In this document: one piece after another, positions 37,295 through 59,211 of the stretch
How positions within the stretch are numbered: position 1 is the first letter of the stretch
How the letters are laid out: every line of letters starts with the position of its first letter
DNA from: a virus
DNA length: 64,000 bases
Reading direction: 5' to 3' (one strand)
Virus record (IMG/VR): IMGVR_UViG_3300042393_000799
The notes under the pieces: model-generated
Told to the model about the DNA's origin: nothing
Databases searched by the model: none
Seen by the model: the letters and a program-made list of their open reading frames with translations, nothing else
Position numbers and translations under genes: made by a program

Positions 37295-38002
37295 TTATAT
37301 AAAAGTTATTTCATTAGTTTCAGGATCCCAATCGAACGTTACAGGCTTATTCACATATTCATATCTTTCGTTTAAGATTGATGCGTTAAAGAAGTGAGTA
37401 CCGTTGTGGAATTTGTAACCATATCCACCGTGAATGTGTCCAAATACATGAATCTTAGGTGGTTGTTCATCTACCTTTTCTCTAAGTAATGCACATCCTA
37501 AATGTGGTTCATTATATGGAGGACCACTCACATCTAAATGATCTTGTGGAGGTCCATGTGTGATAAGAATATCAGTATCTTTAGGAATTGCTTCCCATTT
37601 TGACATTAATCCAGGACCACCCTTTGGTAAGTTAAATGCCCAACTATAGAATTCAGGTTGCCATGGACTACCATAAATAACGGTTTGTTGGTCATCTTGA
37701 TCCCATAGATCTAATCGATTATCTTGAAGATATTCAATGTTTTTATAAGAGGTATAAATCTCACTTGCCATTTCTGGGTCAGTTTCAAAGATTCTGTCAT
37801 GATTTCCTGCAATAAAAACTTTATTGCTATATTGCTCTAATCCTTCAAACCATTTACAAAATTGGTGAATATCCATTGGATTTCTACCAGAATTCATAAG
37901 GTCTCCTGCGTGGATTAATAAGTCTCCACCTGGGAGATCTTTAGGGTCGTAAGATAACTCATCGTGCTTTGTGTGAGTATCTGAAATTAATGTTATTCTC
38001 AT
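37295..38002 (-). CDS. calcineurin-like metallophosphoesterase
   Basis: motifs ISDTH, GDLMNSG, AGNHD, ITHGPP, GHIHGG. Confidence 0.78.
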   Translation of the reverse strand: MRITLISDTHTKHDELSYDPKDLPGGDLLIHAGDLMNSGRNPMDIHQFCKWFEGLEQYSNKVFIAGNHDRIFETDPEMASEIYTSYKNIEYLQDNRLDLWDQDDQQTVIYGSPWQPEFYSWAFNLPKGGPGLMSKWEAIPKDTDILITHGPPQDHLDVSGPPYNEPHLGCALLREKVDEQPPKIHVFGHIHGGYGYKFHNGTHFFNASILNERYEYVNKPVTFDWDPETNEITFI

Positions 38003-38857: not shown

Positions 38858-39334
38858 TTATTCTACGTCTTTTAATTCTGTTCTTAATCTACCAATTGCA
38901 CCTTCTAAAGTATTATAGACTGGAATGTTGTGTCGACTGCAAACTATATCTACATTTCCTTTGCGCCAAAATTCATCTGGACAACAAACAATCATTTTTT
39001 CAGATGCAGCATGCATACCAAGTTCTAATAAACTGATTGGACTCTTGGTTTCTGGAGAAAAGTACATGAAAATAATATCGCATTCATCTAACTTATTCAT
39101 TTCCCAATTTACTTGTCCACTGAATTGTGGATTAGATTCTTTTTGTTCCCATGAACTATCCCAATCATCTCTACGAGGATTGAAAAAAACCAAGTTTTGA
39201 CGATCTTTAAATAATTCAGGAATTACTGCTTGCCAATCTTCTGCTTTTCCCATTTCAATAGAACCTGCTAAAAATATTTTAACATGATGATCGTTATAAT
39301 ATGCATTTTTTGGTTCTGGTTTAATTACTTCCAT
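38858..39334 (-). CDS. nucleoside 2-deoxyribosyltransferase-like protein
   Basis: IFLAGSI...FNP...ECDIIFMYF...SLLELGMHAASEKMIVCCPD pattern of the family. Confidence 0.5.
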   Translation of the reverse strand: MEVIKPEPKNAYYNDHHVKIFLAGSIEMGKAEDWQAVIPELFKDRQNLVFFNPRRDDWDSSWEQKESNPQFSGQVNWEMNKLDECDIIFMYFSPETKSPISLLELGMHAASEKMIVCCPDEFWRKGNVDIVCSRHNIPVYNTLEGAIGRLRTELKDVE

Positions 39335-39593
39335 TTTCTTTGTGTATTGAATTTTTACAATTTCCTTTATGGGATCCCCATTGAGTATTACCCATTCCGA
39401 CTACAATATATTCACAACCTTCAAGAGTGTAGACTCTATAATTTTGATCAGAGTATTGTGAATTACTATCAAGTTCCATTCGATGCGGATTCGGTTGAGT
39501 TGAAACTTGTACATTACCTTCGCAGCTTGTAACCACAAAGGCTACAAGCGCTGCAAAGATTAATATTAATAATGTTACATTTTTTCTGTTCAT
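39321..39593 (-). CDS. small lipoprotein
   Basis: signal peptide + lipobox VTSC. Confidence 0.45.
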   Translation of the reverse strand: MNRKNVTLLILIFAALVAFVVTSCEGNVQVSTQPNPHRMELDSNSQYSDQNYRVYTLEGCEYIVVGMGNTQWGSHKGNCKNSIHKENGSN

Positions 39594-41173
39594 TATGAAT
39601 TAGTTAAACGTTCACGAATTTCTGTTAGTGTAGTTTGGTTTTCGAATTGGCCATCTTTATAGATAGTTTTTAATTTACCAGTGGCTTCATTTTCCCAAGT
39701 ACATTGATCTTCTAATAAGAAACATGTTTCGTCTCCGGCAACTCTTAATAAACCTTTTGCAGATTTCTTAATACCGTCATCAGTGATTGGATCTTTAAAG
39801 ATTTCACGACCTGTGATGATTTCTTCTGAATGTGTATAGTTACCATTCTCGTCTTTAACAGTTCTAAAATGTTCTTTAACTTCAACATAAGTTGCTTTCA
39901 TTGCAAAACCAAAAGTATCTCTAGTGTTATATTGGTATGTAAAACTTCCAACGCCTAATACAATATTTGTACTTGCGAAACCTTTTGCTTCTAATCTTGT
40001 AAAGATTTGTTCTGCACGATCTAACGTTATTGAATCTCCGTAGATTGCTCCAATATGAGAATCAAGAACTTTGTAACCTTGTTCATTGATAGTTCCACCG
40101 AATACATCCCAAAGTAATTCAATAACTCCTTTTACTTCTGGTTTGTTTAAATATTCATCGGTAGGATTAACTTCTGCTACTCCACCTAAGTAAGCAACCA
40201 CATCATTATCATGGTGCGCGTTTGTTTTAATAACACTTGCGCCGCAAATAATATCTACTGGATCACCAGAGTCGGGTCTAATAACTACCTTACCATCACG
40301 AGCTAAAATCTCTTCTTTCAAGGTAACAATATGTTCAGTACAAACTTTCCATAAGTCCCAAGTATCTGATACGATTGAAAGAATTCCTGTTGGATATGTT
40401 TCCATCAAGTTTCTAAATGTTCCAACCTCATCTTCTTTAGATCCAGCACACATAACTGAGTGTTCAGTTGCATTCACAGATCCAGCAACAAATCCAGTTT
40501 CTCCATAGAATTTACGAGCTCCAAAGATTGCTGGTAAACTGTCTGAACCTGAGAAACTTGTTAAGTGACCCAATCCTGAACTAATAGTTGCATCAATAGA
40601 ATCTAAACCTCTCATTGAAAAATCATGTGCTTGCCAATCTACGAACCAACCTTTTTCAGCATCGGTTTTTTCTTGCCATGATGTAAATAATTTACGGTAA
40701 GCATGTGCAATAGTTGCTGAAGTCATTGGTTTCCATAACAAGTTAGAAATAATTGTTTCTAAGTAGTTTGTAATCCAATAGAAATCTGGATGTGTATTGT
40801 AAATTGTCAATACAGGAACTCTCATTGGTACTAAAGAACCTTCTTCGATTGTTTTTACCACGATTGGTAAATAACCTAAATCATGTAATGCTTCAAAGTG
40901 ACTAACATCATAGTCAGTATTTAAGTACATTGACAATTCACGTTTCATTTCGCCGCAAACTTCATCTTTAGGTTTGCTAAAGAAATCTTTGTCAAATGCT
41001 TCGTGAATTTGTTTGATTACCATTTGTTGTCCAAATGATACTAATTGGTCGCATCCTTTAGGAGCATACTTATTACTTCTAGGTGTGAAGTTTGAATAAA
41101 CCAACGTTGTTCCTTTTGGATATTGTTGGTGATGTCCTGTTTTGTAACCGTCTGTTAAAAATAATGGGTTCAT
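39593..41173 (-). CDS. nadV: nicotinamide phosphoribosyltransferase-family enzyme (NadV/NAMPT, or the Namat variant)
   Basis: N-terminal signature LFLTDGYKTGHHQQYP and full-length (526 aa) similarity pattern to NAMPT. Confidence 0.82.
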   Translation of the reverse strand: MNPLFLTDGYKTGHHQQYPKGTTLVYSNFTPRSNKYAPKGCDQLVSFGQQMVIKQIHEAFDKDFFSKPKDEVCGEMKRELSMYLNTDYDVSHFEALHDLGYLPIVVKTIEEGSLVPMRVPVLTIYNTHPDFYWITNYLETIISNLLWKPMTSATIAHAYRKLFTSWQEKTDAEKGWFVDWQAHDFSMRGLDSIDATISSGLGHLTSFSGSDSLPAIFGARKFYGETGFVAGSVNATEHSVMCAGSKEDEVGTFRNLMETYPTGILSIVSDTWDLWKVCTEHIVTLKEEILARDGKVVIRPDSGDPVDIICGASVIKTNAHHDNDVVAYLGGVAEVNPTDEYLNKPEVKGVIELLWDVFGGTINEQGYKVLDSHIGAIYGDSITLDRAEQIFTRLEAKGFASTNIVLGVGSFTYQYNTRDTFGFAMKATYVEVKEHFRTVKDENGNYTHSEEIITGREIFKDPITDDGIKKSAKGLLRVAGDETCFLLEDQCTWENEATGKLKTIYKDGQFENQTTLTEIRERLTNS

Positions 41174-41186
41174 ATATTAATTGTTT

Positions 41187-41267
41187 TTAATTATAGAGTA
41201 AATATACATAAAAAACCTGACATAAAAAAATATCAGGTGATTTATTTTAAAAAAGTTATTAACAATC
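41187..41267 (-). promoter_or_regulatory. repeated intergenic cassette
   Basis: ttaattatagagtaaatatacat...acctgacataaaaaaatatcaggt...ttattttaaaaaagttattaacaatct. Confidence 0.65.
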
Positions 41268-41717
41268 TACAAGATTTGCTAAAACACTCTTAACTATACC
41301 GATTTCTGCACGACCTTGGTATCTTTTGTTAAATTCGCCAATAGTTTTACCTTGTAATGCTTGTGGATTTGTAACTATTCCACTAAATTCTTGCATAATT
41401 TCTGTAAGAGCATCTACAATTTCTTGAGGTTCCATTTGTGCTGGCATATATCTTCTTAAGATTGCACACTCTTCTGATTCTTTTTTAGACAATTCTGGTC
41501 TATTTGCCAAATCATACATTTTAATGGATTCCTCACGTTGCTTGATTCCTTTATTAATTATTTTAATAACCTCTTCATTCGTTGCAACCCAAGTTCCATT
41601 TCCCTTTTCAGCATTCGTGATTGCTGCTTTAATACTATTAAGTGCCATTTTGGCTACTTCGTCTTTTGCTTTCATTGCAGTTATAAAGTCTGCATTTATT
41701 TGTTCTCTAATTATCAT
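41259..41717 (-). CDS. YqeY/GatB-domain protein
   Basis: REQINADFITAMKAKD...LRRYMP pattern of YqeY family. Confidence 0.6.
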   Translation of the reverse strand: MIIREQINADFITAMKAKDEVAKMALNSIKAAITNAEKGNGTWVATNEEVIKIINKGIKQREESIKMYDLANRPELSKKESEECAILRRYMPAQMEPQEIVDALTEIMQEFSGIVTNPQALQGKTIGEFNKRYQGRAEIGIVKSVLANLVDC

Positions 41718-42552
41718 TGTCTATGTTTTTAGTTGGGTTTATTAATCCTTTAATGAACCATCTGTCTTGTGTAAATGTTGGAGTTTCTACAACTTGCCAT
41801 TTGTTTCTCATTACAATTTGAGTAGGGTCTATTACATGTGTTTCACCATCATTAATAAACTCTTTGGTTTTTACAAGTACTGGAACTTCCACCTTTGCAA
41901 TTACTGCACCTCGTTTTAGACGAAAATCATAGTCATTCCAATTGATTCCTTTTTGGAAGATCAATTCTTGCATGTCACTTGTTTTTTTACCATGTAATTC
42001 TTTAGTACTATAAAGACTTTGAGCAACTGAAGAAATTGAATTTCTTACAGCGTCTTGTTGTCTCCAGATAAAATAGTTTTCTACCTCATCAATAAATGGA
42101 ATTTGAAATGCTCTTGCGTCGAATTCAGCCATTTTGAATTTTTCAATATGTTCCGGTTCTAAAAAGATCATGCTATTTTTCATGTATCTCATTAACCTAA
42201 GTTTATTGAATTCTGCAGTGGCCATAGAAGCAGCAACTGATACCATTTTTTGTAGGTTGTTGTCAAACCAAGCGTGAGTTCCTAGGTCATCAAAGTCTGT
42301 TAGAACTAAACTAATCTCATCTGATTGTACATAACCAAATTTAGCACCTTGAATGTTTTTACATAAATATGCAGTAGTTGCATTCATGTCTTCAATAAGT
42401 CCTTGGTCAAATGGTCTCTCTAATCCTTTCGTATAGGTGTGAAAGGCTTTTCCGTCAATACGGATAATTGTAAATGTTCTCCTTGGGAGTTTGATTCTAG
42501 TTCTATCTTCGTAGAACTCTTTCATGCGATCGCCTAATGCATCGTTTTTCAT
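41707..42552 (-). CDS. Thg1-like 3'-5' nucleotidyltransferase (tRNA-His guanylyltransferase family)
   Basis: family motifs RIDGKAFHTYTKGL and GYVQSDEISLVL (cf. Thg1 RLDGRNFH / AYGQSDEYSF). Confidence 0.75.
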   Translation of the reverse strand: MKNDALGDRMKEFYEDRTRIKLPRRTFTIIRIDGKAFHTYTKGLERPFDQGLIEDMNATTAYLCKNIQGAKFGYVQSDEISLVLTDFDDLGTHAWFDNNLQKMVSVAASMATAEFNKLRLMRYMKNSMIFLEPEHIEKFKMAEFDARAFQIPFIDEVENYFIWRQQDAVRNSISSVAQSLYSTKELHGKKTSDMQELIFQKGINWNDYDFRLKRGAVIAKVEVPVLVKTKEFINDGETHVIDPTQIVMRNKWQVVETPTFTQDRWFIKGLINPTKNIDNDN

Positions 42553-42629: not shown

Positions 42630-43205
42630 CTATTTTAAAGTGATTTGCAAAGTTGCTTGATATGCCGAATGTTTAAATGGATCCCCTTCAGTTTCTCTAG
42701 AAGCTCCGGCAAATAATTCTCTTGCTCTTTCAATACCATGATATTTCATGATTAGTGTTGCTGCAGATGGAACTGTTATAGGCATCTTTTCTCCATGCTC
42801 TTCGATAATTTTATCAACTTCAATTTTGATTTGTTCAACAAAGGTTGGTTTCAATCTATCCAAAGACTCTTCTAACATTTCAGAGAAGCATGTACCACCA
42901 TTATAGAATTGTCCCATAAATGAAAGGCTTCCGTCGCTATTTCTAGTAACATTCATAAAGTATTCTGAATCTTCAGATTCTACATGATCGATAACTCTAT
43001 AAAGTTTCTCTCCATAGATAAAATACTCTTCCTTTTGACTGTTTCTTTTATTAGAGTACTCGTCAAAAGCATCCATAAAATCTTCTTGCCAATCCTCGCC
43101 TAATTCAACATCAAATCGTTTTGCAATACTTCTACAAGTCTCTTCTAAACTTTTCTCAATTTTGACTGGATATAATTTTCCGGTATGAAATTCTGTTCTA
43201 CTCAT
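42630..43205 (-). CDS. hypothetical protein
   Basis: 191-aa ORF. Confidence 0.4.
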   Translation of the reverse strand: MSRTEFHTGKLYPVKIEKSLEETCRSIAKRFDVELGEDWQEDFMDAFDEYSNKRNSQKEEYFIYGEKLYRVIDHVESEDSEYFMNVTRNSDGSLSFMGQFYNGGTCFSEMLEESLDRLKPTFVEQIKIEVDKIIEEHGEKMPITVPSAATLIMKYHGIERARELFAGASRETEGDPFKHSAYQATLQITLK

Positions 43206-43357
43206 CTTCGTCTTTATTAAAATCCGTTATTTTTACTAAAATATAAAATGGAACTATAATTGCATAAAATTCCCATTGGTACCAGCTGATATTTGCAAAT
43301 GCTGATAGAGCAAATCCTAAATATGATGGTGCTAATAATTCTACTAATCTTTTCATA

Positions 43358-43642
43358 TTAAATTACTTTAAATTCTGTTCTACTAATTCTTTCAGTGCTT
43401 CCTCCGTGTTCAGTTGCAAGTCTTCTATCTAATGCTTCAATAAAATACTGTTGTGCTCTATTGTCTGGTCTAGTATCTGGATCGATAAATCTTAAAAACA
43501 TATCAACTTGCTCTGGTCTATAACCTCTCATGAATTTTTGATTGAATATTTCAAAGTTTGTTAAAATTTTAATATATCCATGTTCAAATAAATATTGAAC
43601 TGCAGCATCTACTAATCTTGTAGTTTTACCTGATTGTCTCAT
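43358..43642 (-). CDS. mini P-loop protein (Walker A at residues 4-9)
   Basis: MRQSGKTTRLVD; stop codon immediately upstream in frame so start is genuine. Confidence 0.35.
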   Translation of the reverse strand: MRQSGKTTRLVDAAVQYLFEHGYIKILTNFEIFNQKFMRGYRPEQVDMFLRFIDPDTRPDNRAQQYFIEALDRRLATEHGGSTERISRTEFKVI

Positions 43643-44138
43643 TTCTTAATTGATTTTTTACAAGAGTTAATGCTTGTCCTAAAAGATTTAAACCTAACCA
43701 ATATGATGGATCATCAATTCCTTCGGCATTTTCATCAAGACCAATTCCCCAAATATTATCTAATGGAGAAGCCTCTACAAAGATACGATCACCAGTATTT
43801 AACATTTCTTCTCTTAATCCAGCATTTTGTCTGAATTTTGCCAAGTTTCCTTCATAAACAATTGCCAAACAATTTTTATCCCAAGTTGCTTTATCAAAGT
43901 TTTGGATTTGTCTACCATATTTCTTTTGCTCTCTTGGATTCGTTTCCTCCATAATCAAACTTGCTACAATATCATCTCCAAATAATAATGCCTTTTGATG
44001 CATCATATATTGTTCACATGAATTATATTCAATCTTGTCAATTGTCATTGGAGCTTTATGCCATTGTGAGTAAATTCCATTCCAGAAAAATACATGTTTA
44101 TCTGTTACTTTCATATTATTTGTTTTTAAATTGTTCAA
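43626..44138 (-). CDS. NADAR-domain protein (YbiA-like ADP-ribose/N-glycosidase superfamily)
   Basis: FFW...SQW...EYNSCEQYMMHQKALLF...GRQIQNFD..W...KF.QN..L...LLNTG...VEASP.DNIWGIG. Confidence 0.75.
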   Translation of the reverse strand: MNNLKTNNMKVTDKHVFFWNGIYSQWHKAPMTIDKIEYNSCEQYMMHQKALLFGDDIVASLIMEETNPREQKKYGRQIQNFDKATWDKNCLAIVYEGNLAKFRQNAGLREEMLNTGDRIFVEASPLDNIWGIGLDENAEGIDDPSYWLGLNLLGQALTLVKNQLRNETIR

Positions 44139-44328
44139 GATTTTTTACCTTTTCTCTGAAACTTTCTAAAACTTCATATTCGGTTGTTTGTTTTAATAAT
44201 GAAATGGCTTTTTCTAAAGCATTGTCCTTTTCTATATTAACAACTACTTCATTATCAATTGAAGCTTTAAATGAAACTAATTTAGAACCTTTTCCTAAAA
44301 TTATTCCTTCTGGTGAAGATTGTGACAT
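44116..44328 (-). CDS. hypothetical small protein
   Basis: 70-aa ORF. Confidence 0.3.
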   Translation of the reverse strand: MSQSSPEGIILGKGSKLVSFKASIDNEVVVNIEKDNALEKAISLLKQTTEYEVLESFREKVKNLEQFKNK

Positions 44329-44331
44329 ATT

Positions 44332-44826
44332 CTATTTGTTTAAAATTCTTATTGCTCTATTTGTGCATTCTTTAGTTAATCCATAACCAATATCGATACA
44401 ATCTGGATGATTAATATTGGTCGATGTTTGTACAAAGTTCATTCGTTGACTCTTTAACATATCCGTGTCATCATCAAGAATAACGTAATTAGTTATTTCA
44501 GGTTGTCTATCGAGAATTGACTGTATTTCATCTCCACGAACCATTTCTGGGCCACCTTCTAAATCATGGTTCCATCTAAGATCTGGTGTAATTCCAATTA
44601 TTTCTCCAGGATATTGACGTTGTTTCCACATTCTATGTAGTCTTTCCAATCCCATGTGTCTCCATGAAGAACTAATAACTAATTTTGCTCCGGTTTCATC
44701 AATGATTCTACCTAGATTTTCTACAAATTCAGGATGGAATATTCCACCGAAATCATCATGTCCTTGAGGAATTACATTTAATACACCGTCAAAATCTAGA
44801 AAAATAACCTTCATCTTATTTAACAA
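44332..44826 (-). CDS. HAD-superfamily phosphatase of the RNA-repair-associated (HAD_SAK/PNKP-like) type
   Basis: VIFLDFDGVLN at N-terminus; small single-domain HAD. Confidence 0.5.
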   Translation of the reverse strand: MLNKMKVIFLDFDGVLNVIPQGHDDFGGIFHPEFVENLGRIIDETGAKLVISSSWRHMGLERLHRMWKQRQYPGEIIGITPDLRWNHDLEGGPEMVRGDEIQSILDRQPEITNYVILDDDTDMLKSQRMNFVQTSTNINHPDCIDIGYGLTKECTNRAIRILNK

Positions 44827-45029
44827 CTACCGAATCTATAAGATTGAAATCCGCCTTCTTCGCTTGGATGAAATCCTAATTCATCTAATCTTTTCGTGTC
44901 CTCTTCGGATACATCTTCTTCGTCAATGTGACAAACATAAAGAACATCATGTTCGCAATGAGTAGGCCATTTTTGTTCAGGATCCATGTATTTAGCTAAT
45001 ATGATTAGCGCTTCTATTAAATCTTTCAT
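44820..45029 (-). CDS. hypothetical small protein
   Basis: 69-aa ORF. Confidence 0.3.
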   Translation of the reverse strand: MKDLIEALIILAKYMDPEQKWPTHCEHDVLYVCHIDEEDVSEEDTKRLDELGFHPSEEGGFQSYRFGSC

Positions 45030-45032
45030 TTC

Positions 45033-45596
45033 TTATGGTTTATAAATTACTACCGACACTTTCATGTCTTTTAATTCTGTTTGAATAATCCTTTTAATTC
45101 TATTCCAATCTCCACCTGCTAATCCTGCTCCAATCTTTGGCAATCCAATATGTTTACCTTCAAATTGAAAATTGATCTTACGCATACAAAGAGTTAATGC
45201 CTCATAATCTAAAGGTTTTGAAACTCCATCGGTATGATTCTTACCATATCTGAATTGAGTGTATGAATTTACAACTGATAATTCAGGTTCATTCCTTTTA
45301 TTATCGGCGTCTTCTAAAGACCAGATTGTATTTTGACCAATGACGAATGTTTGCCAATCGATACATCCGAGCTTTTCAATGGTTGCTCCCCAAGTTTCCA
45401 TTTCAAAACGGTCAACTCCAAACGCTTTTGCCATTTGCGGTGCTATTCCAGCTCCCATATTTGACAAGCAATTACAACCATGTGTAATTACATCAAACTT
45501 TCCCTGTTTTGCTAGTGCAATTAAATCACCTTCTATTTCTTGATAATTTGTATCAACATCTATCATCGATTTCATAAATTTGTTTAATTCTCCCAT
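45033..45596 (-). CDS. Macro-domain (ADP-ribose-binding/processing) protein
   Basis: ITHGCNCLSNMGAGIA and GLPKIGAGLAGG blocks. Confidence 0.65.
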   Translation of the reverse strand: MGELNKFMKSMIDVDTNYQEIEGDLIALAKQGKFDVITHGCNCLSNMGAGIAPQMAKAFGVDRFEMETWGATIEKLGCIDWQTFVIGQNTIWSLEDADNKRNEPELSVVNSYTQFRYGKNHTDGVSKPLDYEALTLCMRKINFQFEGKHIGLPKIGAGLAGGDWNRIKRIIQTELKDMKVSVVIYKP

Positions 45597-46093
45597 TATG
45601 CTAGTCTAAATCGTTTTAAAAATTCTCTTAAGAAAATGATCTGATCTGCTTCCTTTTCTGTTTCAGCAAATTTCATCTTCCATTCATAATAATCCATTTC
45701 GATTGGTGTTGTACCATCTATATAATATGGACCAACATAATCAGGCCAGTGGGTTTTGTCAAATGCTCTGTCATCAACTAAGAAAACTACAGCTGTCATT
45801 TGATCACCCAAATCTGGCTCATGAAATTCTCCAACTTTAATACCTCGATCTGTTAATTCAAAATAGTTTTGCTGAAGAGTTCCTAATCTCATGCTACTGT
45901 CATTAGTAGTTCCACCATTTAAAATAATAAATGTTTTGTCTATTTTCGCCCATTCTTGGTATTCTGGAGTATTAAAGAAGTCAAGTCCATATTCTACAAC
46001 AGCATGTCCAAATTGGATACCTTGTTGGATTGGGCTTAAATTATAAGGCACCAATCCATACATTCGATATTCTCTATTGTAAATAGATTCCAT
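45596..46093 (-). CDS. possible PTH2-like (peptidyl-tRNA hydrolase 2 / DUF2000-like) protein, tentative
   Basis: LVPYNLSPIQQGIQFGHAVV resembles PTH2 GKIAAQxxHA core. Confidence 0.3.
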   Translation of the reverse strand: MESIYNREYRMYGLVPYNLSPIQQGIQFGHAVVEYGLDFFNTPEYQEWAKIDKTFIILNGGTTNDSSMRLGTLQQNYFELTDRGIKVGEFHEPDLGDQMTAVVFLVDDRAFDKTHWPDYVGPYYIDGTTPIEMDYYEWKMKFAETEKEADQIIFLREFLKRFRLA

Positions 46094-46228
46094 TACTCTG
46101 CTTCCTCGTTTTCAGATTCTTCTACTTCAACTTCTCTTAATTCATATCTTGAACCTAAGATTGGATCGTGTACTAGTACAATAACTTCTTGTACTTGCTT
46201 TTCTACTGCTTTTGCTTTTTTAGCCATC

Positions 46229-46444
46229 TTATATTAAATTTAATTGTGTTAGTTCTTCAATGGCAGCATCGAATGCTTCTTGCCATGTTCTGTATAAATA
46301 CCAATCTCTTACTTCAATTTTTTCATAGTTACCAAAGTGTTCATATTTGTATATGTCAAATGCAAACTTTGGAGCACTTGTACGGTCTACTTCTATTTCT
46401 ATAACGTAACCATGCTGTGTAAATAAAGAATCTATTGTATACAT
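46229..46444 (-). CDS. hypothetical small protein
   Basis: 71-aa ORF. Confidence 0.3.
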   Translation of the reverse strand: MYTIDSLFTQHGYVIEIEVDRTSAPKFAFDIYKYEHFGNYEKIEVRDWYLYRTWQEAFDAAIEELTQLNLI

Positions 46445-47376
46445 TATATTACTTTAAATGCAGTTGTGTTTGTTTTTACATCATATTCATTATCAGCAAT
46501 ATCTCTATGAGAATTTGTTGTGTAAATACGTTCGAAATATTTGTTTAGCTCTGTAAAACCAGCACTAAATATTCCATGAGTAACTACTAAATAAATTTTA
46601 GCACTTGGTCTGCTTGCTTTAATAGCTTTAGCTAATTCAATAAAAGTTCTACCACCATCACAAATATCATCAATGATTACATATTTCATATCATCATTAA
46701 CTGAGTTAGGGTCTCCGATAGATCCTGGTAAGTTTGGTACTTCTGTTTTAAGAATGTTACCAGTTCTCATATCTCTAACTTTGTTTGCCGTAACAATATT
46801 TTGGATTTGAAACTTCTTAGCAACATCAAAGATTTTCTTGTATGCACCAGCATCTGGGCTTACTAAACAAATTCTTTCTTGAGCATCTCTCTTATTATCA
46901 ATATCTGTAAGTGCATATTTAACTACTGTATGATTATCTGTTTTCTCATAGTTATTTAAACATGCTTCTAAAACATCTGAATGTGGATCCAATGTAATTA
47001 CTGTTATGAAGTTTAAAGAGTTAATGATTGGACAAATAACTTGTTTCAAATAGTTAACACCACCGTCAACAAATTTACGATCTGAACGAGCTCCCATGAA
47101 GTATGGAACGTAAAGTGCGATTTCTCGATTTGGTTTAATATTTCTGATTGCTGCTGTTGCACAAATAATTAATTCTAAGTCCTTAAAACTATTTAAACGT
47201 GAACTGATTTTTACAGCATCTTCATATATCATTAAGTCATTCCAATCAATAAGGTCTACTGTTTGTTGACCATCTGGAAATTGACTAATTTTGTATTTAA
47301 TGTCTGATTTTTCTGGATTAACTAAGTCTAATGTTATCATCTTTAAGTTGTTTTTAATTATATGTAAATATACCAA
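46444..47376 (-). CDS. prs: ribose-phosphate pyrophosphokinase-family enzyme (Prs, or the ADPR-pyrophosphokinase Adps variant)
   Basis: PYFMGARSDRK, TLDPHS, VSPDAGAYKK, PRTase motif VIIDDICDGGRTF. Confidence 0.8.
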   Translation of the reverse strand: MVYLHIIKNNLKMITLDLVNPEKSDIKYKISQFPDGQQTVDLIDWNDLMIYEDAVKISSRLNSFKDLELIICATAAIRNIKPNREIALYVPYFMGARSDRKFVDGGVNYLKQVICPIINSLNFITVITLDPHSDVLEACLNNYEKTDNHTVVKYALTDIDNKRDAQERICLVSPDAGAYKKIFDVAKKFQIQNIVTANKVRDMRTGNILKTEVPNLPGSIGDPNSVNDDMKYVIIDDICDGGRTFIELAKAIKASRPSAKIYLVVTHGIFSAGFTELNKYFERIYTTNSHRDIADNEYDVKTNTTAFKVI

Positions 47377-47434
47377 AAAGTTTTGACATAAAAAAATATA
47401 TGTGTGATTATTTTATCAAAACTTGTTAACAATT
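47354..47434 (-). promoter_or_regulatory. repeated intergenic cassette (weak hairpin variant)
   Basis: ttaattatatgtaaatatacc...ttgacataaaaaaatatatgtgtga...ttattttatcaaaacttgttaacaatt. Confidence 0.55.
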
Positions 47435-47820
47435 ATACGCCCAGTGATTTGAGTACCATTAGGTGTATCTTCTGTTGCCCAATCTATAAGATTACCTTTC
47501 ATAATTTCTTCACATATCTCTCTTGCAATTCCAGCTTTATACATGTCTAGTGCAAAATTCCCGCTAGTAGATGCATTACCAGATCCACTTGTAGAAAAAT
47601 CAGTGCCATACATCATTTCCATATTAGACATGTTTCTGGTGCTTCTGATTTGTATAGGATTTCCTATTTTAGTATCGTAAACAAATGCCTTTCCAGTTTC
47701 ATTTTTAGGCTTTCTTTTATAGAATAAAGAAAATGGAAATAATAAGTATAATATCTCTTTCCAATCAAAATTCTTTAGGTTCTGATCCATTCGATCGCAC
47801 CATTCATTAAATCTTTTCAT
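47416..47820 (-). CDS. hypothetical protein
   Basis: 134-aa ORF (start overlaps cassette; may be shorter). Confidence 0.35.
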   Translation of the reverse strand: MKRFNEWCDRMDQNLKNFDWKEILYLLFPFSLFYKRKPKNETGKAFVYDTKIGNPIQIRSTRNMSNMEMMYGTDFSTSGSGNASTSGNFALDMYKAGIAREICEEIMKGNLIDWATEDTPNGTQITGRIIVNKF

Positions 47821-49542: not shown

Positions 49543-50088
49543 TTATTTTTCTTTACGGGGTTCAACAAATAATTCTTGTAATGTACAGAATAACTCATAG
49601 TTAGGGTCTGTAACATCTCCAAACCATCCAAGTTCTTGAATGAAGTCTGAGTTTTCTTTCTTATACATTTCAAACATTCTACTTCCAGTCATTTTGGAAT
49701 ATTGAACGTTTGCAATACGGTCACATAGTTTTACGAATGTTGCACCTGGAGTTTGACGAATTCCTTTGTAATAAGTTGTGTTTGCACGTTCTTTACGTGT
49801 TTTACCTTTCTCATTAGAAACTGCATAAATAATATCGGCAGCTTCTTGTCCTAATTGATCTTTTACATCGTTATAAGAAACACGAGTATCTTCAATAAGG
49901 TCATGTCCCCAAGCTGCCAAAAGCACCGATCCTCTAAATGAAGTTTCTCCATCATTTGTATCAGGTATTGCTTTAATAAATTCTTGAGCAACATTTGAAA
50001 CCATTCTCAAATGAAATTCATAAGGAAGATACGTATCATACATGTGATTTGTATCTTTATGTTGTTTTAAAATCCAATCTATTTTCAT
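49543..50088 (-). CDS. HD-domain hydrolase of the RelA/SpoT (small alarmone hydrolase, MESH1-like) type
   Basis: AAWGHDLIEDT matches the HDxxED metal-binding motif of Rel/Spo hydrolase domains; 181 aa single-domain. Confidence 0.55.
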   Translation of the reverse strand: MKIDWILKQHKDTNHMYDTYLPYEFHLRMVSNVAQEFIKAIPDTNDGETSFRGSVLLAAWGHDLIEDTRVSYNDVKDQLGQEAADIIYAVSNEKGKTRKERANTTYYKGIRQTPGATFVKLCDRIANVQYSKMTGSRMFEMYKKENSDFIQELGWFGDVTDPNYELFCTLQELFVEPRKEK

Positions 50089-50089
50089 C

Positions 50090-50335
50090 TTAATAGGTAT
50101 TAGTGATTTGTCTTGTTAATATCTCTGAATCGCCTTCTTGTGATTCGATTCCTAGTGAGATTGATTTACCATAAGCTCTTACTCTAATTTCATCTTCATT
50201 TTCGTCGAAGTAGAATCTTACGAAACCTGCACCAGTTGCCTTTTCATTATAACCAACCATATCTTTGTGTTGGATTGCTGCTGAGAATATGATTGCACAT
50301 CCATCAACAATTACGTATTTTGCTGGATTTAACAT
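50090..50335 (-). CDS. hypothetical small protein
   Basis: 81-aa ORF. Confidence 0.35.
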   Translation of the reverse strand: MLNPAKYVIVDGCAIIFSAAIQHKDMVGYNEKATGAGFVRFYFDENEDEIRVRAYGKSISLGIESQEGDSEILTRQITNTY

Positions 50336-50339
50336 AATC

Positions 50340-50606
50340 TTAGTTAATAAAGTGTTTTAGATAAATTGCTTGCTGTCTGATACCGAATTCTCTTGTAAGA
50401 ATATTAGATGCTATTTGGTCTTTCATAAAAAGATCCAAACCAATGATCATTTTGCCAGCTTCAAATTTTCTTAAGCGACCTTGAATCATTCCTTCTTCAT
50501 CTGCAAGTTTATTGATAATAAATGCAAGTTGCTCCTGTGTTTCAGCTTGATTAACCAGTTGCCATGTTTCTAATTCTGTCATATTGTTTTGTTTTTGTTT
50601 TTCCAA
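50340..50606 (-). CDS. hypothetical small protein
   Basis: 88-aa ORF. Confidence 0.35.
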   Translation of the reverse strand: MEKQKQNNMTELETWQLVNQAETQEQLAFIINKLADEEGMIQGRLRKFEAGKMIIGLDLFMKDQIASNILTREFGIRQQAIYLKHFIN

Positions 50607-50854
50607 CCACCAAGTGGCATTATTTCTTCGTGAGTTCCTAACGGATGTTTTTCATTAACGTCTTCTTCTCTACCAGAAGCAATACCCATGATTTTGATAT
50701 TTTGATTTCCAGCGATAATTTTAGTTTTTTCAATTGCCTCATTGGTATCTTCAGCCATTACACATGTAACGAAGTCTTTATATTTGCTAAATGCAGGATT
50801 TTTGTGTTCCTCATCATAGTAATGTAAATAGTAAACTGTTATTGGCTTTTTCAT
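50579..50854 (-). CDS. hypothetical small protein
   Basis: 91-aa ORF. Confidence 0.35.
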   Translation of the reverse strand: MKKPITVYYLHYYDEEHKNPAFSKYKDFVTCVMAEDTNEAIEKTKIIAGNQNIKIMGIASGREEDVNEKHPLGTHEEIMPLGGWKNKNKTI

Positions 50855-50896
50855 CTTATCTTACCTTTGGTTTGAGACATTTTTTATATGCTACTT

Positions 50897-51133
50897 TTAC
50901 TTTTTAGTTTCAAGATAGAATTTTTTCTTCATCTCTTCTTGATTTTCAGGTGTCCATGAAATTATAAAATCTCTCAAAACTTGTTCGTCAAGACTATAAA
51001 TATAAGTCTTATCATATGGTAATTTAAGTCCTTGCATTAAAGTTTCAAATTCAAGAATAAGATTAGCTTTAGTGTTTAAACTTTTTAGAAGTTCACGTTC
51101 GTTCGGTGTTAGATTTTTTTCGTTGTTTGACAT
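50897..51133 (-). CDS. hypothetical small protein
   Basis: 78-aa ORF. Confidence 0.35.
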   Translation of the reverse strand: MSNNEKNLTPNERELLKSLNTKANLILEFETLMQGLKLPYDKTYIYSLDEQVLRDFIISWTPENQEEMKKKFYLETKK

Positions 51134-51144
51134 GATTGTTGGTT

Positions 51145-51492
51145 TTATACGGTTTTATAAGATTTTACAGTGTTTCTGTAATTTACTACGGCACGAGCAA
51201 GAAGCTCTAGACGATAATTTGGATTGTGTATTAAGATACGTTTGTTGATTTTAAAATCTCTTTCAGCCCATTCAACCCATATGCTTTCTTTTTTAACTGG
51301 ATTTAATTGGTAAATTGAAAATAAGGTTTTACCATTTCTCCAACATTTAGTTGTTGTCTTACGTCTGATGTAACCACTCTCGTAACTTAAATAATCACAG
51401 TTAGTAATAGGATCATGAAAACAAATTGTACCATTATCGGCTTGACGTTGACTTGTTACTTCGATTACTTTAAGTGTTGCTAATTTATTCAT
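51145..51492 (-). CDS. hypothetical protein
   Basis: 115-aa ORF. Confidence 0.4.
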   Translation of the reverse strand: MNKLATLKVIEVTSQRQADNGTICFHDPITNCDYLSYESGYIRRKTTTKCWRNGKTLFSIYQLNPVKKESIWVEWAERDFKINKRILIHNPNYRLELLARAVVNYRNTVKSYKTV

Positions 51493-51513
51493 GTTTTATA
51501 TTTTAAATTTATA

Positions 51514-51741
51514 TTAAAGTCCGGTTTCTCTTCTAAAATCGTAATCTTCTTTTTCAGCCTCAGAATAAACATTAAGATTTAAGTATCGCCCTTCTGAAAG
51601 CTTACTAGTTGAGGTACGAGTTTCTTCGTGATCCCAATTGAAACAAAAATCATACTCTTCTTGAGTCAAATACACTTTAGTATCCATGATCTCTTGGTAC
51701 TGTTTGTACTCTTGTTCTGCTAAATAATTGTCTTCTGTCAT
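51514..51741 (-). CDS. hypothetical small acidic protein
   Basis: 75-aa ORF preceded by cassette. Confidence 0.35.
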   Translation of the reverse strand: MTEDNYLAEQEYKQYQEIMDTKVYLTQEEYDFCFNWDHEETRTSTSKLSEGRYLNLNVYSEAEKEDYDFRRETGL

Positions 51742-51753
51742 CTTTGTTTGTTT

Positions 51754-51824
51754 TTAATTATAAGGCTAATATACAACTAATATTTGATATAAAAAAATAT
51801 ATTAAGATAAAGTTATTAACAATT
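51754..51824 (-). promoter_or_regulatory. repeated intergenic cassette (hairpin-less variant)
   Basis: ttaattataaggctaatatacaac...aaagttattaacaatt. Confidence 0.55.
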
Positions 51825-52146
51825 CAGCTTTTTTTGCTTTAATATGTTTACAATCACCTCGGTGGAAGCTTTTTGATGGACATGTACAATTCCAAGATCC
51901 ATTAGTATCTGAAACTGTATAATTTACACCAACTTTAGAACCATTTACCTGCCATTCTTTTTTAGGTGACTCTGGTCGAGTTTCTTTTTTAGGTATATTA
52001 ACTGCTGCCTCAAACTTAATTTGCTCTCTAGTAGTACCTTCTGCTACACGATGCCAACCTGGACATACATATGTACCAGATATGGTCTTAACTATGCCAA
52101 AAACATCACCGTAAAAAGCACTGCGAGGAAATGTATAAATTTTCAT
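51802..52146 (-). CDS. SWIM-type zinc-finger protein
   Basis: C-terminal WNCTCPSKSFHRGDCKHI = CxCx(n)CxH. Confidence 0.45.
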   Translation of the reverse strand: MKIYTFPRSAFYGDVFGIVKTISGTYVCPGWHRVAEGTTREQIKFEAAVNIPKKETRPESPKKEWQVNGSKVGVNYTVSDTNGSWNCTCPSKSFHRGDCKHIKAKKAELLITLS

Positions 52147-52148
52147 GG

Positions 52149-52373
52149 TTATCGTTCTAAGATTACAAATTCACCAAATGCATTATCAAAAACTTCTAAA
52201 AGGTGTTCATAGTCACCTGACATCATATCAGCAATAAGTGAAGCACCTCTGTCCTTCCAACCCAATTGAGTTGCAAATCGTTTAGCATATGCCATAAGAG
52301 CAAATGCATTACCATCAGGTCCTGTTAAATCTATAATAATTGGTCCGTTTTTCTCTTGTTTTTCTCTGATCAT
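52149..52373 (-). CDS. hypothetical small protein
   Basis: 74-aa ORF preceded by cassette. Confidence 0.35.
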   Translation of the reverse strand: MIREKQEKNGPIIIDLTGPDGNAFALMAYAKRFATQLGWKDRGASLIADMMSGDYEHLLEVFDNAFGEFVILER

Positions 52374-52385
52374 TTTGTTTATCTT

Positions 52386-52466
52386 TTAATTACTAAGCTA
52401 ATATACGAAAAAAAGCCCAAACTAAAAAATTTGGGCTTAATTATTTTCATAAAGTTACGAACAATT
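52386..52466 (-). promoter_or_regulatory. repeated intergenic cassette
   Basis: ttaattactaagctaatatacg...agcccaaactaaaaaatttgggct...ttattttcataaagttacgaacaattt (hairpin identical to copy at 8531-8556). Confidence 0.7.
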
Positions 52467-52726
52467 TACATTCTAAGTTTAAATTCCTTTAAATATTGAC
52501 ATTTTTCGTACTCTTCTTGCTTTTCAAAGTATTTGATCATTTCATCTATTTGATGTTCTGTAGGTTCTTGGTCAGTTTCTATAAAAAATTCAGGAATTAA
52601 ATCTTCTGGAAAATCACCACCTTGGTGTACAGTGATAAAACATATACATGTTATTATTTGCATAAGCGTTACATTACCACTTATGATTTCGTAACTATTT
52701 TCGATAGCTTTACCTCTGTTTCTCAT
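52466..52726 (-). CDS. hypothetical small protein
   Basis: 86-aa ORF. Confidence 0.35.
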   Translation of the reverse strand: MRNRGKAIENSYEIISGNVTLMQIITCICFITVHQGGDFPEDLIPEFFIETDQEPTEHQIDEMIKYFEKQEEYEKCQYLKEFKLRM

Positions 52727-52729
52727 ATT

Positions 52730-53374
52730 TTACCAATTTTTCTTGTAATGCACATCATCAACCCATGAGAATAAACGTGTCTCTTCAACATCATGCAAGA
52801 TAATAGTCTTATCAGTTACTTTGTCATTATAGAAATATTCATAATTAAATAAAGCGACATCCAGATCCATTTTTTCAATAATCTTATTATTGAATGTTTT
52901 ACATCCATGAGCCCATGTAATTCTATCATAAACACTAAGACATTCATTTATGATTCTACTTTGAGGTGTAGATCCATAAACTGTACAATCAATAAGAGTA
53001 TTGTGTTCTTGAGTTGGTTTCATACCTGCAAAGAATGTATGTTCTTCTGAGAGTTGATCCAATATTATATCAAATGGTCTAATTGGTTTTGCATCTATAT
53101 CACAATAAATACCTCCAAAATCTCTAAGTAATAATAACCTAACTCTATCGGCAATAAAAGCCCATTTATAAATTTCAGGTTCTTTTACATAGTTTTGTAA
53201 AAATGGATCATCTTTGTACAAATCATTGAAAATATCATCATGACTCCATAACTTATATTCCCAATCTGGATGCATTGCTTGCATCTCTTCTCCAAATCTT
53301 TTGCACCAATCTGGTACTTCTTTATAGCCAATCCAAACTTGATGTAGTTTCTTTGGTATTTTATTTACTGTCAT
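52730..53374 (-). CDS. DxD glycosyltransferase (GT32/OCH1-like 'Gly_transf_sug')
   Basis: KIPKKLHQVWIG N-terminal motif and CDIDAKP DxD motif. Confidence 0.55.
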   Translation of the reverse strand: MTVNKIPKKLHQVWIGYKEVPDWCKRFGEEMQAMHPDWEYKLWSHDDIFNDLYKDDPFLQNYVKEPEIYKWAFIADRVRLLLLRDFGGIYCDIDAKPIRPFDIILDQLSEEHTFFAGMKPTQEHNTLIDCTVYGSTPQSRIINECLSVYDRITWAHGCKTFNNKIIEKMDLDVALFNYEYFYNDKVTDKTIILHDVEETRLFSWVDDVHYKKNW

Positions 53375-53379
53375 TAATT

Positions 53380-53595
53380 TTATTTATTTTTAGACCAAAC
53401 TAGTTTTGCATCCACGTGTACGTTTATGACATTAGGATTCTTATTTAGGATTGCATTAATATATGCTGTTGGATTTTTAACCTTGTCATATGCTTTGGTT
53501 TCACCATTAGACAATTCTACAATTACTGTTGAACCACCTGGAGTTAGACTTAAATTGTTTGTTCTAAACTCGTCACTTACGTAATATCCGCTCAT
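53380..53595 (-). CDS. hypothetical small protein
   Basis: 71-aa ORF. Confidence 0.3.
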   Translation of the reverse strand: MSGYYVSDEFRTNNLSLTPGGSTVIVELSNGETKAYDKVKNPTAYINAILNKNPNVINVHVDAKLVWSKNK

Positions 53596-53597
53596 AA

Positions 53598-54185
53598 TTA
53601 TTTTATATATTTAAATAGATTTAATACCTCTGGGCACTCAAATCTTTCTGGGTGCCATTGAACTGCAATGATTTTAAGTGCTTCGTCTTCTATAGCTTCT
53701 GGAATCCAACCACCATCAAAAGACATATGTGTCACTTTAAAATTATCTGCAATAATTGAGCACCATTGATGATGCCTAGAATTAACTTCAAACATTACAT
53801 CGTCTAAGTTTTTGATGTAATGAAATTGTGATTCTCTTTCACTATGATCTTCATCATCTGAGAATTCATCACTTTGATGATATTCTACTATTCTGTCTTT
53901 TAGATCTTCTACCTTGCCACCAAAATAGTGATTCAATATTTGCATGCCACGACAAACACCAATGATTGGTTGTTTGGCATCAATTGCCATTTTTATCCAA
54001 TTAAGTTCACGCGTATCTCGATCTACATTTATACCAATATCTGCACCACCGCAAAGTATAAGAGGAGCATCGATCCTTTTGTATCTAAGATCTATCATAA
54101 CAGGTTCATAACCCTTTGATATAATCCAATCAATATATGCCTTTCCTTCTATTTCACCTTTCGGTGGTGCAACAAATACCTTCAA
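53598..54185 (-). CDS. class I glutamine amidotransferase-like / peptidase C26 (gamma-glutamyl hydrolase-type)
   Basis: catalytic-Cys motif GVCRGMQ and IAVQWHPE. Confidence 0.7.
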   Translation of the reverse strand: MKVFVAPPKGEIEGKAYIDWIISKGYEPVMIDLRYKRIDAPLILCGGADIGINVDRDTRELNWIKMAIDAKQPIIGVCRGMQILNHYFGGKVEDLKDRIVEYHQSDEFSDDEDHSERESQFHYIKNLDDVMFEVNSRHHQWCSIIADNFKVTHMSFDGGWIPEAIEDEALKIIAVQWHPERFECPEVLNLFKYIK

Positions 54186-54192
54186 ACCTTTT

Positions 54193-54423
54193 TTATTTTT
54201 TTATAACAACTTGTCTAATTCTATCAAACACTTTTTCTAAATCTTCAATTGAATCTACTGACCATGAATTTGTTTTTAAAACAAAAAAGCAATCACCATC
54301 TCTGTCGATACCTAGTGAACTTTTCGCTTCTACTTCCAAGAATTCATATTCATCGTCAGATAAACAGTTTGCATCTTGTGAAAATCTAAACTTTGCCTCT
54401 TCTAAAATTAATCCTTGTTCCAT
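54193..54423 (-). CDS. hypothetical small protein
   Basis: 76-aa ORF. Confidence 0.3.
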   Translation of the reverse strand: MEQGLILEEAKFRFSQDANCLSDDEYEFLEVEAKSSLGIDRDGDCFFVLKTNSWSVDSIEDLEKVFDRIRQVVIKK

Positions 54424-54434
54424 ATTAATTATAT

Positions 54435-54653
54435 TTAAATTTTACCAAATTCAGTTGTATTATTGCCACATTTTTTGCAATAATATTTGTATCCATAGAC
54501 AATTGTACTTTTATTTCCAGCCTTAATATCATTGACATAATATTCTTCACGATCTTGGTTACAATAGCCTCCTTTTTTACATTTAGGAAGAGATTGCATA
54601 TAATTCCAAAAGTCTTCTTGTAGAAACTTAATAAATCTCAACAATTTTTTCAT
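54435..54653 (-). CDS. small zinc-ribbon-like protein
   Basis: CKKGGYC ... CKKCGNN cysteine pairs. Confidence 0.35.
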   Translation of the reverse strand: MKKLLRFIKFLQEDFWNYMQSLPKCKKGGYCNQDREEYYVNDIKAGNKSTIVYGYKYYCKKCGNNTTEFGKI

Positions 54654-54664
54654 ATTGTTTATAT

Positions 54665-55957: not shown

Positions 55958-56112
55958 TATACTTCTGTTTTATCTTCGATTACTAAATATTTTTGACCAC
56001 CTTCTAATTCTTTAACTGTACCACTTTCAATAAGTGTTTTAACATAATTAGGATTTTCTTTGTTTAAAAATGCCAACATTTGAATTGTAGGCTCCATGTA
56101 AATTACTTTCAT
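55957..56112 (-). CDS. micro-ORF (51 aa) upstream of and TAATG-coupled to the ligase gene
   Basis: MKVIYMEPTIQMLAFLNKENPNYVKTLIESGTVKELEGGQKYLVIEDKTEV; not in ORF track. Confidence 0.3.
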   Translation of the reverse strand: MKVIYMEPTIQMLAFLNKENPNYVKTLIESGTVKELEGGQKYLVIEDKTEV

Positions 56113-56138
56113 ATTATACGTTTGATTTGTTATAGTGT

Positions 56139-56615: not shown

Positions 56616-56628
56616 ATCTGTTTGTTTT

Positions 56629-57310: not shown

Positions 57311-57312
57311 AA

Positions 57313-57618: not shown

Positions 57619-57643
57619 TATATATCAGATTGGTAGCTTGAAA

Positions 57644-59189: not shown

Positions 59190-59211
59190 ACAAAAAATAA
59201 ATTTAACAAAA

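Follow-up and report, generated by a model that had tools for sequence, protein, structure and literature searches.

The stretch of viral DNA analysed here (IMG/VR virus record IMGVR_UViG_3300042393_000799; 64,000 nucleotides, which we call the window) carries a gene for a NADAR-domain N-glycosidase and a gene for a macro-domain protein only 0.9 kb apart, with a HAD_SAK_2 phosphatase gene and two small open reading frames (ORFs) between them. An earlier note on this DNA had pointed out this arrangement, which profile and structure matches bear out, and had read the pair either as a phage counter-measure against DarTG-like defence or as a way of handling the ADP-ribose (ADPR) that NAD-consuming immunity releases. 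We find that the pair is bracketed by an Adps-like gene upstream (46444-47340) and Namat downstream (39593-41173). Adps and Namat together make up NARP1, a known phage pathway which rebuilds NAD+ from ADPR and nicotinamide after the action of host NADases (10.1101/2024.02.11.579819). The overall idea of ADPR handling in conflict with host immunity stands, and its second form is the better supported one; a DarTG counter-measure is not what the setting of the pair in a NARP1 locus points to. Our preferred reading, to which we give a probability of roughly 0.6, is that the NADAR and macro proteins act as accessory enzymes in a phage NARP1 locus that has been extended, serving NAD+ reconstitution of the type recently named 'NARP1-AP'.

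The NARP1 core and the pair that it brackets

Every window gene for which we give coordinates lies on the minus strand, which carries almost every gene of the window (~31% G+C). Read in the direction of transcription, the locus begins with Adps, two small ORFs, a gene for a protein of 165 amino acids (aa), the macro gene, a small ORF, the HAD gene, a second small ORF and NADAR, and continues with three uncharacterised ORFs, a Thg1-like gene, a YqeY gene, Namat, a 90-aa ORF and a Nuc_deoxyri_tr2-like (NDT2-like) gene. Contigs identical or near-identical to the window are held in JGI and ENA metagenomes, and because a T4-type major capsid gene (Gp23) is found on related contigs as long as 275-430 kb, we take the source to be an uncultured large myovirus. 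Megablast with positions 43000-47500 against 50,697 deposited phage genomes turns up no close relative. Its sole match is a 52-bp stretch of Adps (window ~46626-46677) that is 92-94% identical in DNA to the phi92-like E. coli phages 92CQ, ECGD1 and PHB05, whose whole Adps proteins are ~37% identical to the window's; the stretch probably encodes a conserved active-site segment.

The upstream gene encodes a 298-aa, Adps-like ADP-ribose diphosphokinase of the Prs family. It matches phrog_619, a phage 'ribose-phosphate pyrophosphokinase' family, at E 6.5e-67 and stays under every NCBIfam Prs cut-off (76.9 vs 113). The protein is 33% identical to gp175 of Vibrio phage Athena and 33-39% identical to the Adps of Athena and inny in pairwise comparison, and a 298-aa gene is also called here on identical public contigs. 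Downstream, Namat, the nicotinamide ADP-ribose transferase of the pathway (NAPRTase and NAMPT_N domains; phrog_448, E 1.6e-187), is 45% identical to Athena gp177. Its translation carries GSFTYQYNTRD, an exact fit to the selectivity-clamp helix (SCH) signature GSX-Phi-X-Phi-X-Phi-TRD, which sets Namat apart from Nampt, where the signature is lacking (PMC12774641).

Behind Namat, the 90-aa ORF and the 158-aa NDT2-like protein fill 38858-39593, with the latter at 38858-39334 (PF15891, E 1.4e-35; the uncharacterised protein of PDB 4MCJ, E 1.5e-26). The NDT2-like gene recurs directly after Namat in relatives of the window, and in one relative, locus L103, it overlaps the end of Namat. Among 80 loci selected by their Adps it is present in 45, which makes it the commonest NARP1 companion in this lineage beyond Namat itself. 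The papers searched do not mention it and describe no functional link between Namat and a deoxyribosyltransferase. Just downstream of the NDT2-like gene lies a calcineurin-like metallophosphoesterase gene (37295-38002), which is kept in close relatives (95% identical in L025).

The macro gene (45033-45596) encodes a 187-aa protein that falls below the Pfam Macro threshold (17.1 bits vs 22). Its label is nevertheless secure, because the protein matches phrog_335 (E 3e-43), because its sequence matches in the PDB, BT1257 (E 1e-9) and Poa1p (E 4e-4), are both macro-fold, and because its AlphaFold2 model (pLDDT 75, with low-confidence ligand loops) is placed by Foldseek among macro domains: the top 50 PDB matches are all of this kind except four designed-hydrolase entries that do not carry the label (4etj, 4j4z, 4etk, 2dx6). 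The closest characterised PDB relative by sequence is Poa1p. Together with the NADAR result below (166.2 bits on PF08719), this confirms both domain assignments of the earlier note. Its assignment of the macro protein to the DarG type is another matter, as the protein groups with a different family.

Judged by sequence, the macro protein is a member of the NARP1-associated Adpp family described in 2026, and a predicted phosphatase of ADPR-1''-phosphate. When the profile of the window's macro family is aligned by hhalign with one built from ten published macro proteins associated with NARP1 (Table S1 of Osterman et al., 10.64898/2026.01.28.702374), the match has a probability of 99.9% and E 1.4e-35. 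Nine of the 11 residues that are invariant in the published set are found in the window's protein (H39, N42, G50, A52, G77, Q114, P153, G156 and W164), and the remaining two positions (P45 and G131, in Ceto numbering) have no unambiguous mapping. The motifs HGCNC..MGAGIAP and PKIGAGLAGGDW are shared with the Adpp family, and identity to Athena gp176 is 31% (E 3e-17). Poa1p of yeast and BT1257 of Bacteroides, the closest solved relatives, have the His-x-Cys-Asn-Cys and Gly-rich loops in common with the window's protein. Poa1p differs in that it acts in tRNA splicing, and its Ser30 and Phe152 are replaced by Asn46 and Ala160 in the window, as in phage Adpp.

The published pathway offers a direct comparison. 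A Poa1p-like macro protein occurs in 15% of NARP1 operons (Osterman et al., bioRxiv, January 2026, 10.64898/2026.01.28.702374), and the Adpp of Vibrio phage Gary dephosphorylates ADPR-1''-phosphate, which lets NARP1 overcome the RES-domain defence aRES; this is the pathway that was named 'NARP1-AP' (10.64898/2026.01.28.702374). Athena, the sister phage of Gary, has the same three-gene operon of Adps, macro and Namat (gp175-gp176-gp177). The window likewise has an Adps-like gene, a Namat with the clamp motif and, between them, a macro gene of the same family as Athena's. The differences lie in the layout and in the added parts: the published operon consists of three adjacent genes, whereas 13 ORFs separate Adps from Namat in the window; the interval adds NADAR, the HAD phosphatase and the Pth2-fold, Thg1-like and YqeY genes; the window's macro protein has an insertion of ~20 residues; and the published pathway includes neither NADAR nor the NDT2-like gene.

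The NADAR gene matches the Pfam family PF08719 at E 9.8e-49 (166.2 bits, cut-off 35.1) over the ORF 43626-44138, and its product aligns with 8BAU, a NADAR of solved structure, at E 8e-13. The gene reported earlier is thus real, and only its start needs revision: the TTG listed at 44138 is probably wrong and the true start is almost certainly the ATG at 44114, since this ATG comes one base past the upstream stop (TAAtATG), and since homologues are 157-162 aa long and public calls on identical contigs give 162 aa. We therefore use 43626-44114, encoding 162 aa. In the numbering of the longer, 170-aa product, E42 and K49 align with the catalytic Glu and the phosphate-binding Lys of 8BAU, and E42, K49, K72, E122 and D127 are invariant across 34 NADAR relatives. 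The reference residues are E88/K95 in the NADAR of E. coli C7, K50 in that of Phytophthora and E36/K43 in T4 AdfN.

The neighbourhood in relatives and in Tenacibaculum

The gene neighbourhood was compared in two samples, one of 32 viral loci picked by NADAR similarity alone and one of 80 loci picked by Adps similarity alone. Within 10 kb of NADAR, Adps or Namat is found in 25 loci of the first sample and a macro gene in 22. The second sample holds Namat in 72 of the 80 loci, and the genes next in frequency after the NDT2-like one are macro (38), Pth2-fold (19), Thg1-like (13), HAD (11), NADAR (10) and YqeY (9). All ten of the NADAR-bearing loci in this sample also have a macro gene (Fisher p = 3e-4, relatedness ignored). 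Because the pairing of NADAR with macro recurs both in loci selected by NADAR and in loci selected by Adps, it is not a matter of chance.

The position of NADAR is equally recurrent. Both core genes are present in 20 of 33 distinct NADAR loci, and in 18 of these 20 the interval between Adps and Namat contains NADAR, without exception in the same orientation as the two core genes. In eight loci it is less than 300 nucleotides (nt) upstream of Namat, and these eight come from three NADAR lineages that are 41-47% identical to one another; in a neighbour-joining tree (drawn without support values) the three Namat-linked lineages are separated by NADARs that are not linked. The arrangement is most easily seen in L103, a compact operon of Adps (9977-10912), macro (10912-11553), NADAR (11553-12026), Namat (12111-13628) and NDT2-like (13615-14085), where stop and start overlap at three of the four junctions, the fourth being an 85-nt gap in front of Namat. 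An association of NADAR with NARP1 is not described in the searchable literature apart from a remark by Iyer et al. 2022, who found phage NADARs in neighbourhoods with NadV and NadM, and no functional link is described there for NADAR with NARP1 or for NADAR with Thoeris.

When one genome from each prokaryotic species was scanned, a chromosomal counterpart turned up in Tenacibaculum amylolyticum (locus L132; NZ_CAZEFZ010000026.1, record 439391-455879, locus coordinates 756-11056). This is a single co-directional cluster that starts with an NrtR-type regulator (NUDIX plus NrtR winged helix), followed by an Adps-like gene, DUF4291, an ADP-ribosylglycohydrolase (ARH), an unknown ORF and a Macro gene, and then by an Adpp-like macro gene, KptA/Tpt1, a 2-oxoglutarate (2OG) oxygenase, Macro_2, Metallophos, NADAR, an unknown ORF, the NDT2-like gene and Namat. 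NrtR regulators respond to ADPR. The Namat of the cluster has the motif GSFTYQYNTRD, identical to the window's, and the flanks are housekeeping genes, with folD, ffh and dinB on one side and a peptidase gene on the other. Five genes, namely Adps, Adpp-like macro, NADAR, Namat and NDT2-like, are common to the window, L103 and Tenacibaculum. The cluster looks like a bacterial regulon that recycles ADPR into NAD+, and the strongest single argument that NADAR and macro work with Adps and Namat is that the Tenacibaculum Adps and Namat bracket nearly every known ADPR-releasing hydrolase fold. As a side observation, the Metallophos gene that stands beside NADAR in this cluster is weakly similar to the window's metallophosphoesterase (31% over 74 aa).

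Proposed role and competing explanations

How might the pair contribute to the pathway? Host NADase effectors split NAD+, after which Adps pyrophosphorylates ADPR to ADP-ribose pyrophosphate (ADPR-PP) and Namat combines ADPR-PP with nicotinamide to give NAD+ (10.1101/2024.02.11.579819). Macro-domain Adpp turns ADPR-1''-phosphate, the product of the RES-type defence aRES, back into ADPR (10.64898/2026.01.28.702374). In the scheme that we propose, NAD+-consuming immunity of the host would generate ADPR derivatives and Adps and Namat would rebuild NAD+; the window's macro protein would dephosphorylate ADPR-1''-phosphate to ADPR, and NADAR, an N-glycosidase with an intact active site, would free ADPR from an N-linked ADP-ribosyl conjugate. 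NADAR would then do two things at once, clearing the adduct or signal and returning ADPR to Adps and Namat. Besides ADP-ribosylated guanine (ADPr-guanine), its substrates could include other base-linked or cyclic N-linked ADPR species, and the HAD phosphatase may, purely as speculation, take another phosphate off an ADPR derivative. NARP1-AP would in this way be extended by NADAR, the NDT2-like gene and the HAD phosphatase, with the operonic association of NADAR apparently uncharacterised so far.

There is precedent for such additions. Two enzymes whose genes likewise sit inside NARP1 operons, Adpp and RyDEP, have been proven to act as ADPR 'feeders' (10.64898/2026.01.28.702374; 10.64898/2026.05.28.727677), and a feeder role of NADAR would parallel theirs. 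RyDEP, from the NARP1 loci of mycobacteriophages (10.64898/2026.05.28.727677), resembles the present case in being a glycosidase whose gene is inserted in a NARP1 operon and whose product, linear ADPR, goes on to NAD+ through Adps and Namat. It differs in having an unrelated fold (the RyR R12 domain) and in cleaving the O-glycosidic ribose-ribose bond of 2'/3'cADPR, whereas the chemistry of NADAR concerns N-glycosidic ribosyl-amine bonds. A bolder version of the proposal can be stated, which we hold tentatively and would sooner bet against than on: NADAR would be the third class of NARP1 feeder after Adpp and RyDEP, hydrolysing N-glycosidic ADPR that arises from NAD+-consuming immunity (candidates being base-linked ADPr, canonical or N7 cyclic ADPR, and His-ADPR, which share in the same doubt), and the resulting five-gene extended pathway would also have been domesticated in bacteria, under an ADPR-sensing NrtR, where together with ARH, KptA and additional macro proteins it would be a general route from ADPR to NAD+.

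Several observations weigh against placing the pair in an extended NARP1 locus. Since many of the sampled loci belong to phages related to one another, the counts lack independence, which the statistics overstate. NADAR is present in only 12.5% of the Adps-selected loci (10/80), and among the cultured phages inspected (Staphylococcus GH15, Listeria AG20, Vibrio phiKT1024, Yersinia fHe-Yen9-04 and coliphages inny and PHB05) it is adjacent to NARP1 in none; the NADARs of phiKT1024, fHe-Yen9-04, AG20 and GH15 are 35-45% identical to the window's. In most relatives Adps and Namat are direct neighbours or almost so, and the NARP1 paper looked for them at most ten genes apart; in the window they are 13 ORFs apart, and a terminator-like hairpin precedes Namat. 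Similarly, the published search for Adpp took genes within two of Adps or Namat, and in the window three ORFs separate macro from Adps; relatives such as L001, L004 and L103 have macro within that distance, which is a rule of detection and not a biochemical criterion. Phages that lack Adps often carry the macro family too (it is found in 2448 records, and Adps in 1514; among Escherichia phages, in 967 vs 178), and Foldseek does not tell DarG, TARG1, Poa1p and BT1257 apart as relatives of the macro model (E 5e-7 to 4e-5). Finally, three tRNA-related genes (Thg1-like, YqeY and Pth2-fold) with no obvious link to ADPR are interleaved with the genes of the NAD+ pathway, a pattern that suggests either a hotspot for insertions or a combined island for counter-defence. 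The interval between Adps and Namat may thus be a hotspot of this kind or a general anti-defence island, and since it collects tRNA-related genes, position alone does not prove a shared pathway.

The alternative that survives best, and the one closest to the earlier note, is a stand-alone anti-DarTG module in which NADAR acts like AdfN on the guanine modified by DarT1, the macro protein acts like DarG on the thymine modified by DarT2, and the nearness of NARP1 is incidental. The NADAR half of this alternative has biochemical precedent. NADAR cleaves the N-glycosidic bond joining ADPR to guanine N2 (PMC11543638), and all phage NADARs assayed (T4 gp30.3, Bas32 and Bas60) hydrolyse ADPr-guanine and, when expressed ectopically, allow DarTG1-sensitive phages to form plaques again on a host with DarTG1; those of Bas32 and Bas60 also neutralise DarT1 in cells free of infection, which the T4 protein does not, working only in T-even phages (PMC11825919, PMC11125620). 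Like these AdfN proteins (PMC11825919), the window's is an orphan single-domain NADAR of a large myovirus that retains its catalytic Glu and Lys, seven residues apart. It is 35-40% identical to the NADARs of rV5-like and phi92-like coliphages, and its lineage is embedded in NARP1 operons, which is not reported for AdfN proteins. An AdfN-like activity against DarT1 is possible for it. The one substrate proven so far for NADARs of phages is the ADPr-guanine that toxins of the DarT1 type make.

The macro half fares worse. The window's two proteins do have the same two folds as the antitoxins DarG (macro) and DarG1 (NADAR), with the catalytic Glu and Lys common to DarG1 and the window's NADAR, and the structural comparison with DarG that the earlier note had called for does return the DarG macro domain 5M31 as the best Foldseek match of the macro model (E 5e-7), although the same search leaves DarG inseparable from the other three proteins. 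Near the site of TARG1's catalytic Lys84 there is also a Lys-Pro dipeptide (K127-P128), which the HMMER alignment offsets by one residue from K84-P85; K127 is not invariant in close homologues. Against this, the DarG equivalog model NF048014 gives 33.9 bits vs a cut-off of 250 and covers just 43 residues; the protein is a single 187-aa domain without the C-terminal DarT-binding domain of DarG; the position of the catalytic Asp125 of TARG1 is taken by Ala160; and the match to the Adpp profile is the one described above. No DarT gene is adjacent, and no DarT family turned up in the family scans of the window. We find no support for a DarG-like role of the macro protein, and a role in DNA repair only would leave unexplained both why NADAR recurs between Adps and Namat and the existence of the NrtR operon of Tenacibaculum. 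We consider such a module unlikely. The anti-DarT factor AdfB of phage ICP1 was also considered as a NARP1-linked macro protein and rejected, as it is a 77-aa direct binder of DarT.

The genes could also be unrelated neighbours, with the NARP1 locus serving as a hotspot for early or accessory genes and NADAR having some other role, for example as a YbiA-like N-glycosidase acting on riboflavin intermediates. TIGR02464, 'riboflavin biosynthesis intermediates N-glycosidase', is matched above its cut-off (142.8 vs 73.7), but this is a domain-level model of the entire NADAR fold, and there are no riboflavin genes nearby. It is true that the same interval is filled by many unrelated genes in different relatives, and that a scan for promoters and terminators gives no operon signal; the scan was uninformative in itself, with promoter-like sites scarcer than in shuffled sequence and terminator-like sites numbering five vs 3.3 expected. 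The linkage to Namat in three divergent NADAR lineages and the bacterial NrtR operon of ADPR enzymes speak against mere proximity, and we find this explanation decidedly improbable.

Least probable of all, in our estimate, is a module for RNA or tRNA repair along the lines proposed for these domains by Iyer et al. 2022, in which macro would clear the ADPR-1''-phosphate left by Tpt1/KptA and NADAR and HAD_SAK_2 would process other repair by-products or ADP-ribosylated RNA alongside Thg1-like, YqeY and Pth2-fold: the HAD_SAK_2 family was defined from RNA-repair proteins, the three tRNA-related genes are interleaved with the NADAR-macro pair, RNA ligase genes stand beside the NARP1 loci of Athena and phi92-like phages and KptA belongs to the Tenacibaculum operon, but no RNA ligase, KptA/Tpt1 or polynucleotide kinase is among the 25/26 families seen in window ORFs of at least 70 aa, compact operons such as L103 contain no RNA-repair gene, and the member of the macro family that has been tested experimentally acts in NAD+ reconstitution (10.64898/2026.01.28.702374).

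If NADAR and macro are indeed accessory enzymes of NARP1, what would this mean? NAD+ depletion is among the commonest antiviral strategies of bacteria, and recent work has found phages extending NARP1 with enzymes that turn non-canonical NAD+ breakdown products into ADPR. The recurrence of NADAR in NARP1 operons, often with the NDT2-like gene, points to at least one further breakdown product of NAD+ and would imply a host NAD+-consuming reaction that yields an N-linked ADP-ribose conjugate. NADAR enzymes would then gain a metabolic role beyond the reversal of DarT1 damage. The NrtR-headed operon of Tenacibaculum suggests, in addition, that bacteria run an ADPR-to-NAD+ recycling regulon of their own from the same parts.

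Other genes of the interval and of the window

The HAD_SAK_2 phosphatase gene between macro and NADAR (44332-44814; 160 aa; PF18143, E 2.5e-27) is tightly packed between the same two genes in relatives L118-L121, and is present in 11 of the 80 Adps-selected loci. The small ORFs on either side of it, of 70 aa (44116-44328) and 69 aa (44820-45029), are not conserved: they have no family match and no tblastn match in related loci.

Between Adps and macro, the 165-aa protein (45596-46093; phrog_3668, E 6.7e-16) has no Pfam or PDB sequence match, and its likeness to Pth2 is seen only by fold search. Its AlphaFold2 model (pLDDT 90.6) has Pth2-type peptidyl-tRNA hydrolases as best Foldseek matches (E 2e-4, TM 0.6) and carries an added C-terminal extension. 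The stop of the gene overlaps the start of macro (TAATG), and in 19 of the 80 loci a Pth2-fold gene occupies this same place between Adps and macro. The two small ORFs that fill 46093-46444, of 71 aa (46229-46444) and 44 aa (46093-46227), are partly conserved in the closest relatives; the 71-aa ORF has no Pfam or PHROGs match.

On the other side of NADAR, three ORFs of 94, 52 and 191 aa occupy 42630-43642. The 191-aa gene (phrog_6035) directly follows NADAR in L118-L121, and the 94-aa ORF (43358-43642) is missing from relatives with that order. This ORF overlaps the NADAR stop by 17 nt, its N-terminus MRQSGKTT resembles a Walker A motif, and it may be the remnant of an ATPase gene. Next come two overlapping genes placed between NADAR and Namat, one for a Thg1-like tRNA 3'-5' nucleotidyltransferase (41707-42552; PF04446, E 2e-29; phrog_4717, E 3.5e-86) and one for a YqeY/GatB-like protein (41259-41717; PF09424, E 4.7e-31); in the 80 loci, the 13 Thg1-like genes lie within the NARP1 locus and YqeY is present in nine.

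Outside the locus, the regions 162-36361 and 50000-62662 carry auxiliary metabolic genes of a set typical for large environmental myoviruses: DAHP_synth_1 (KdsA-like), NAD-dependent epimerase/dehydratases and the glycosyltransferases GT9, GT25 and GT1, together with an M42 aminopeptidase, SPFH/Band_7, a thioredoxin, a 4HBT thioesterase, a class-I glutamine amidotransferase and an ATP-dependent DNA ligase. A NUDIX protein encoded at 16494-16982, 27 kb off the NARP1 locus, has the Nudix box GGIEEGESHLDAAIRETYEE and could be a candidate ADPR or NAD pyrophosphatase.

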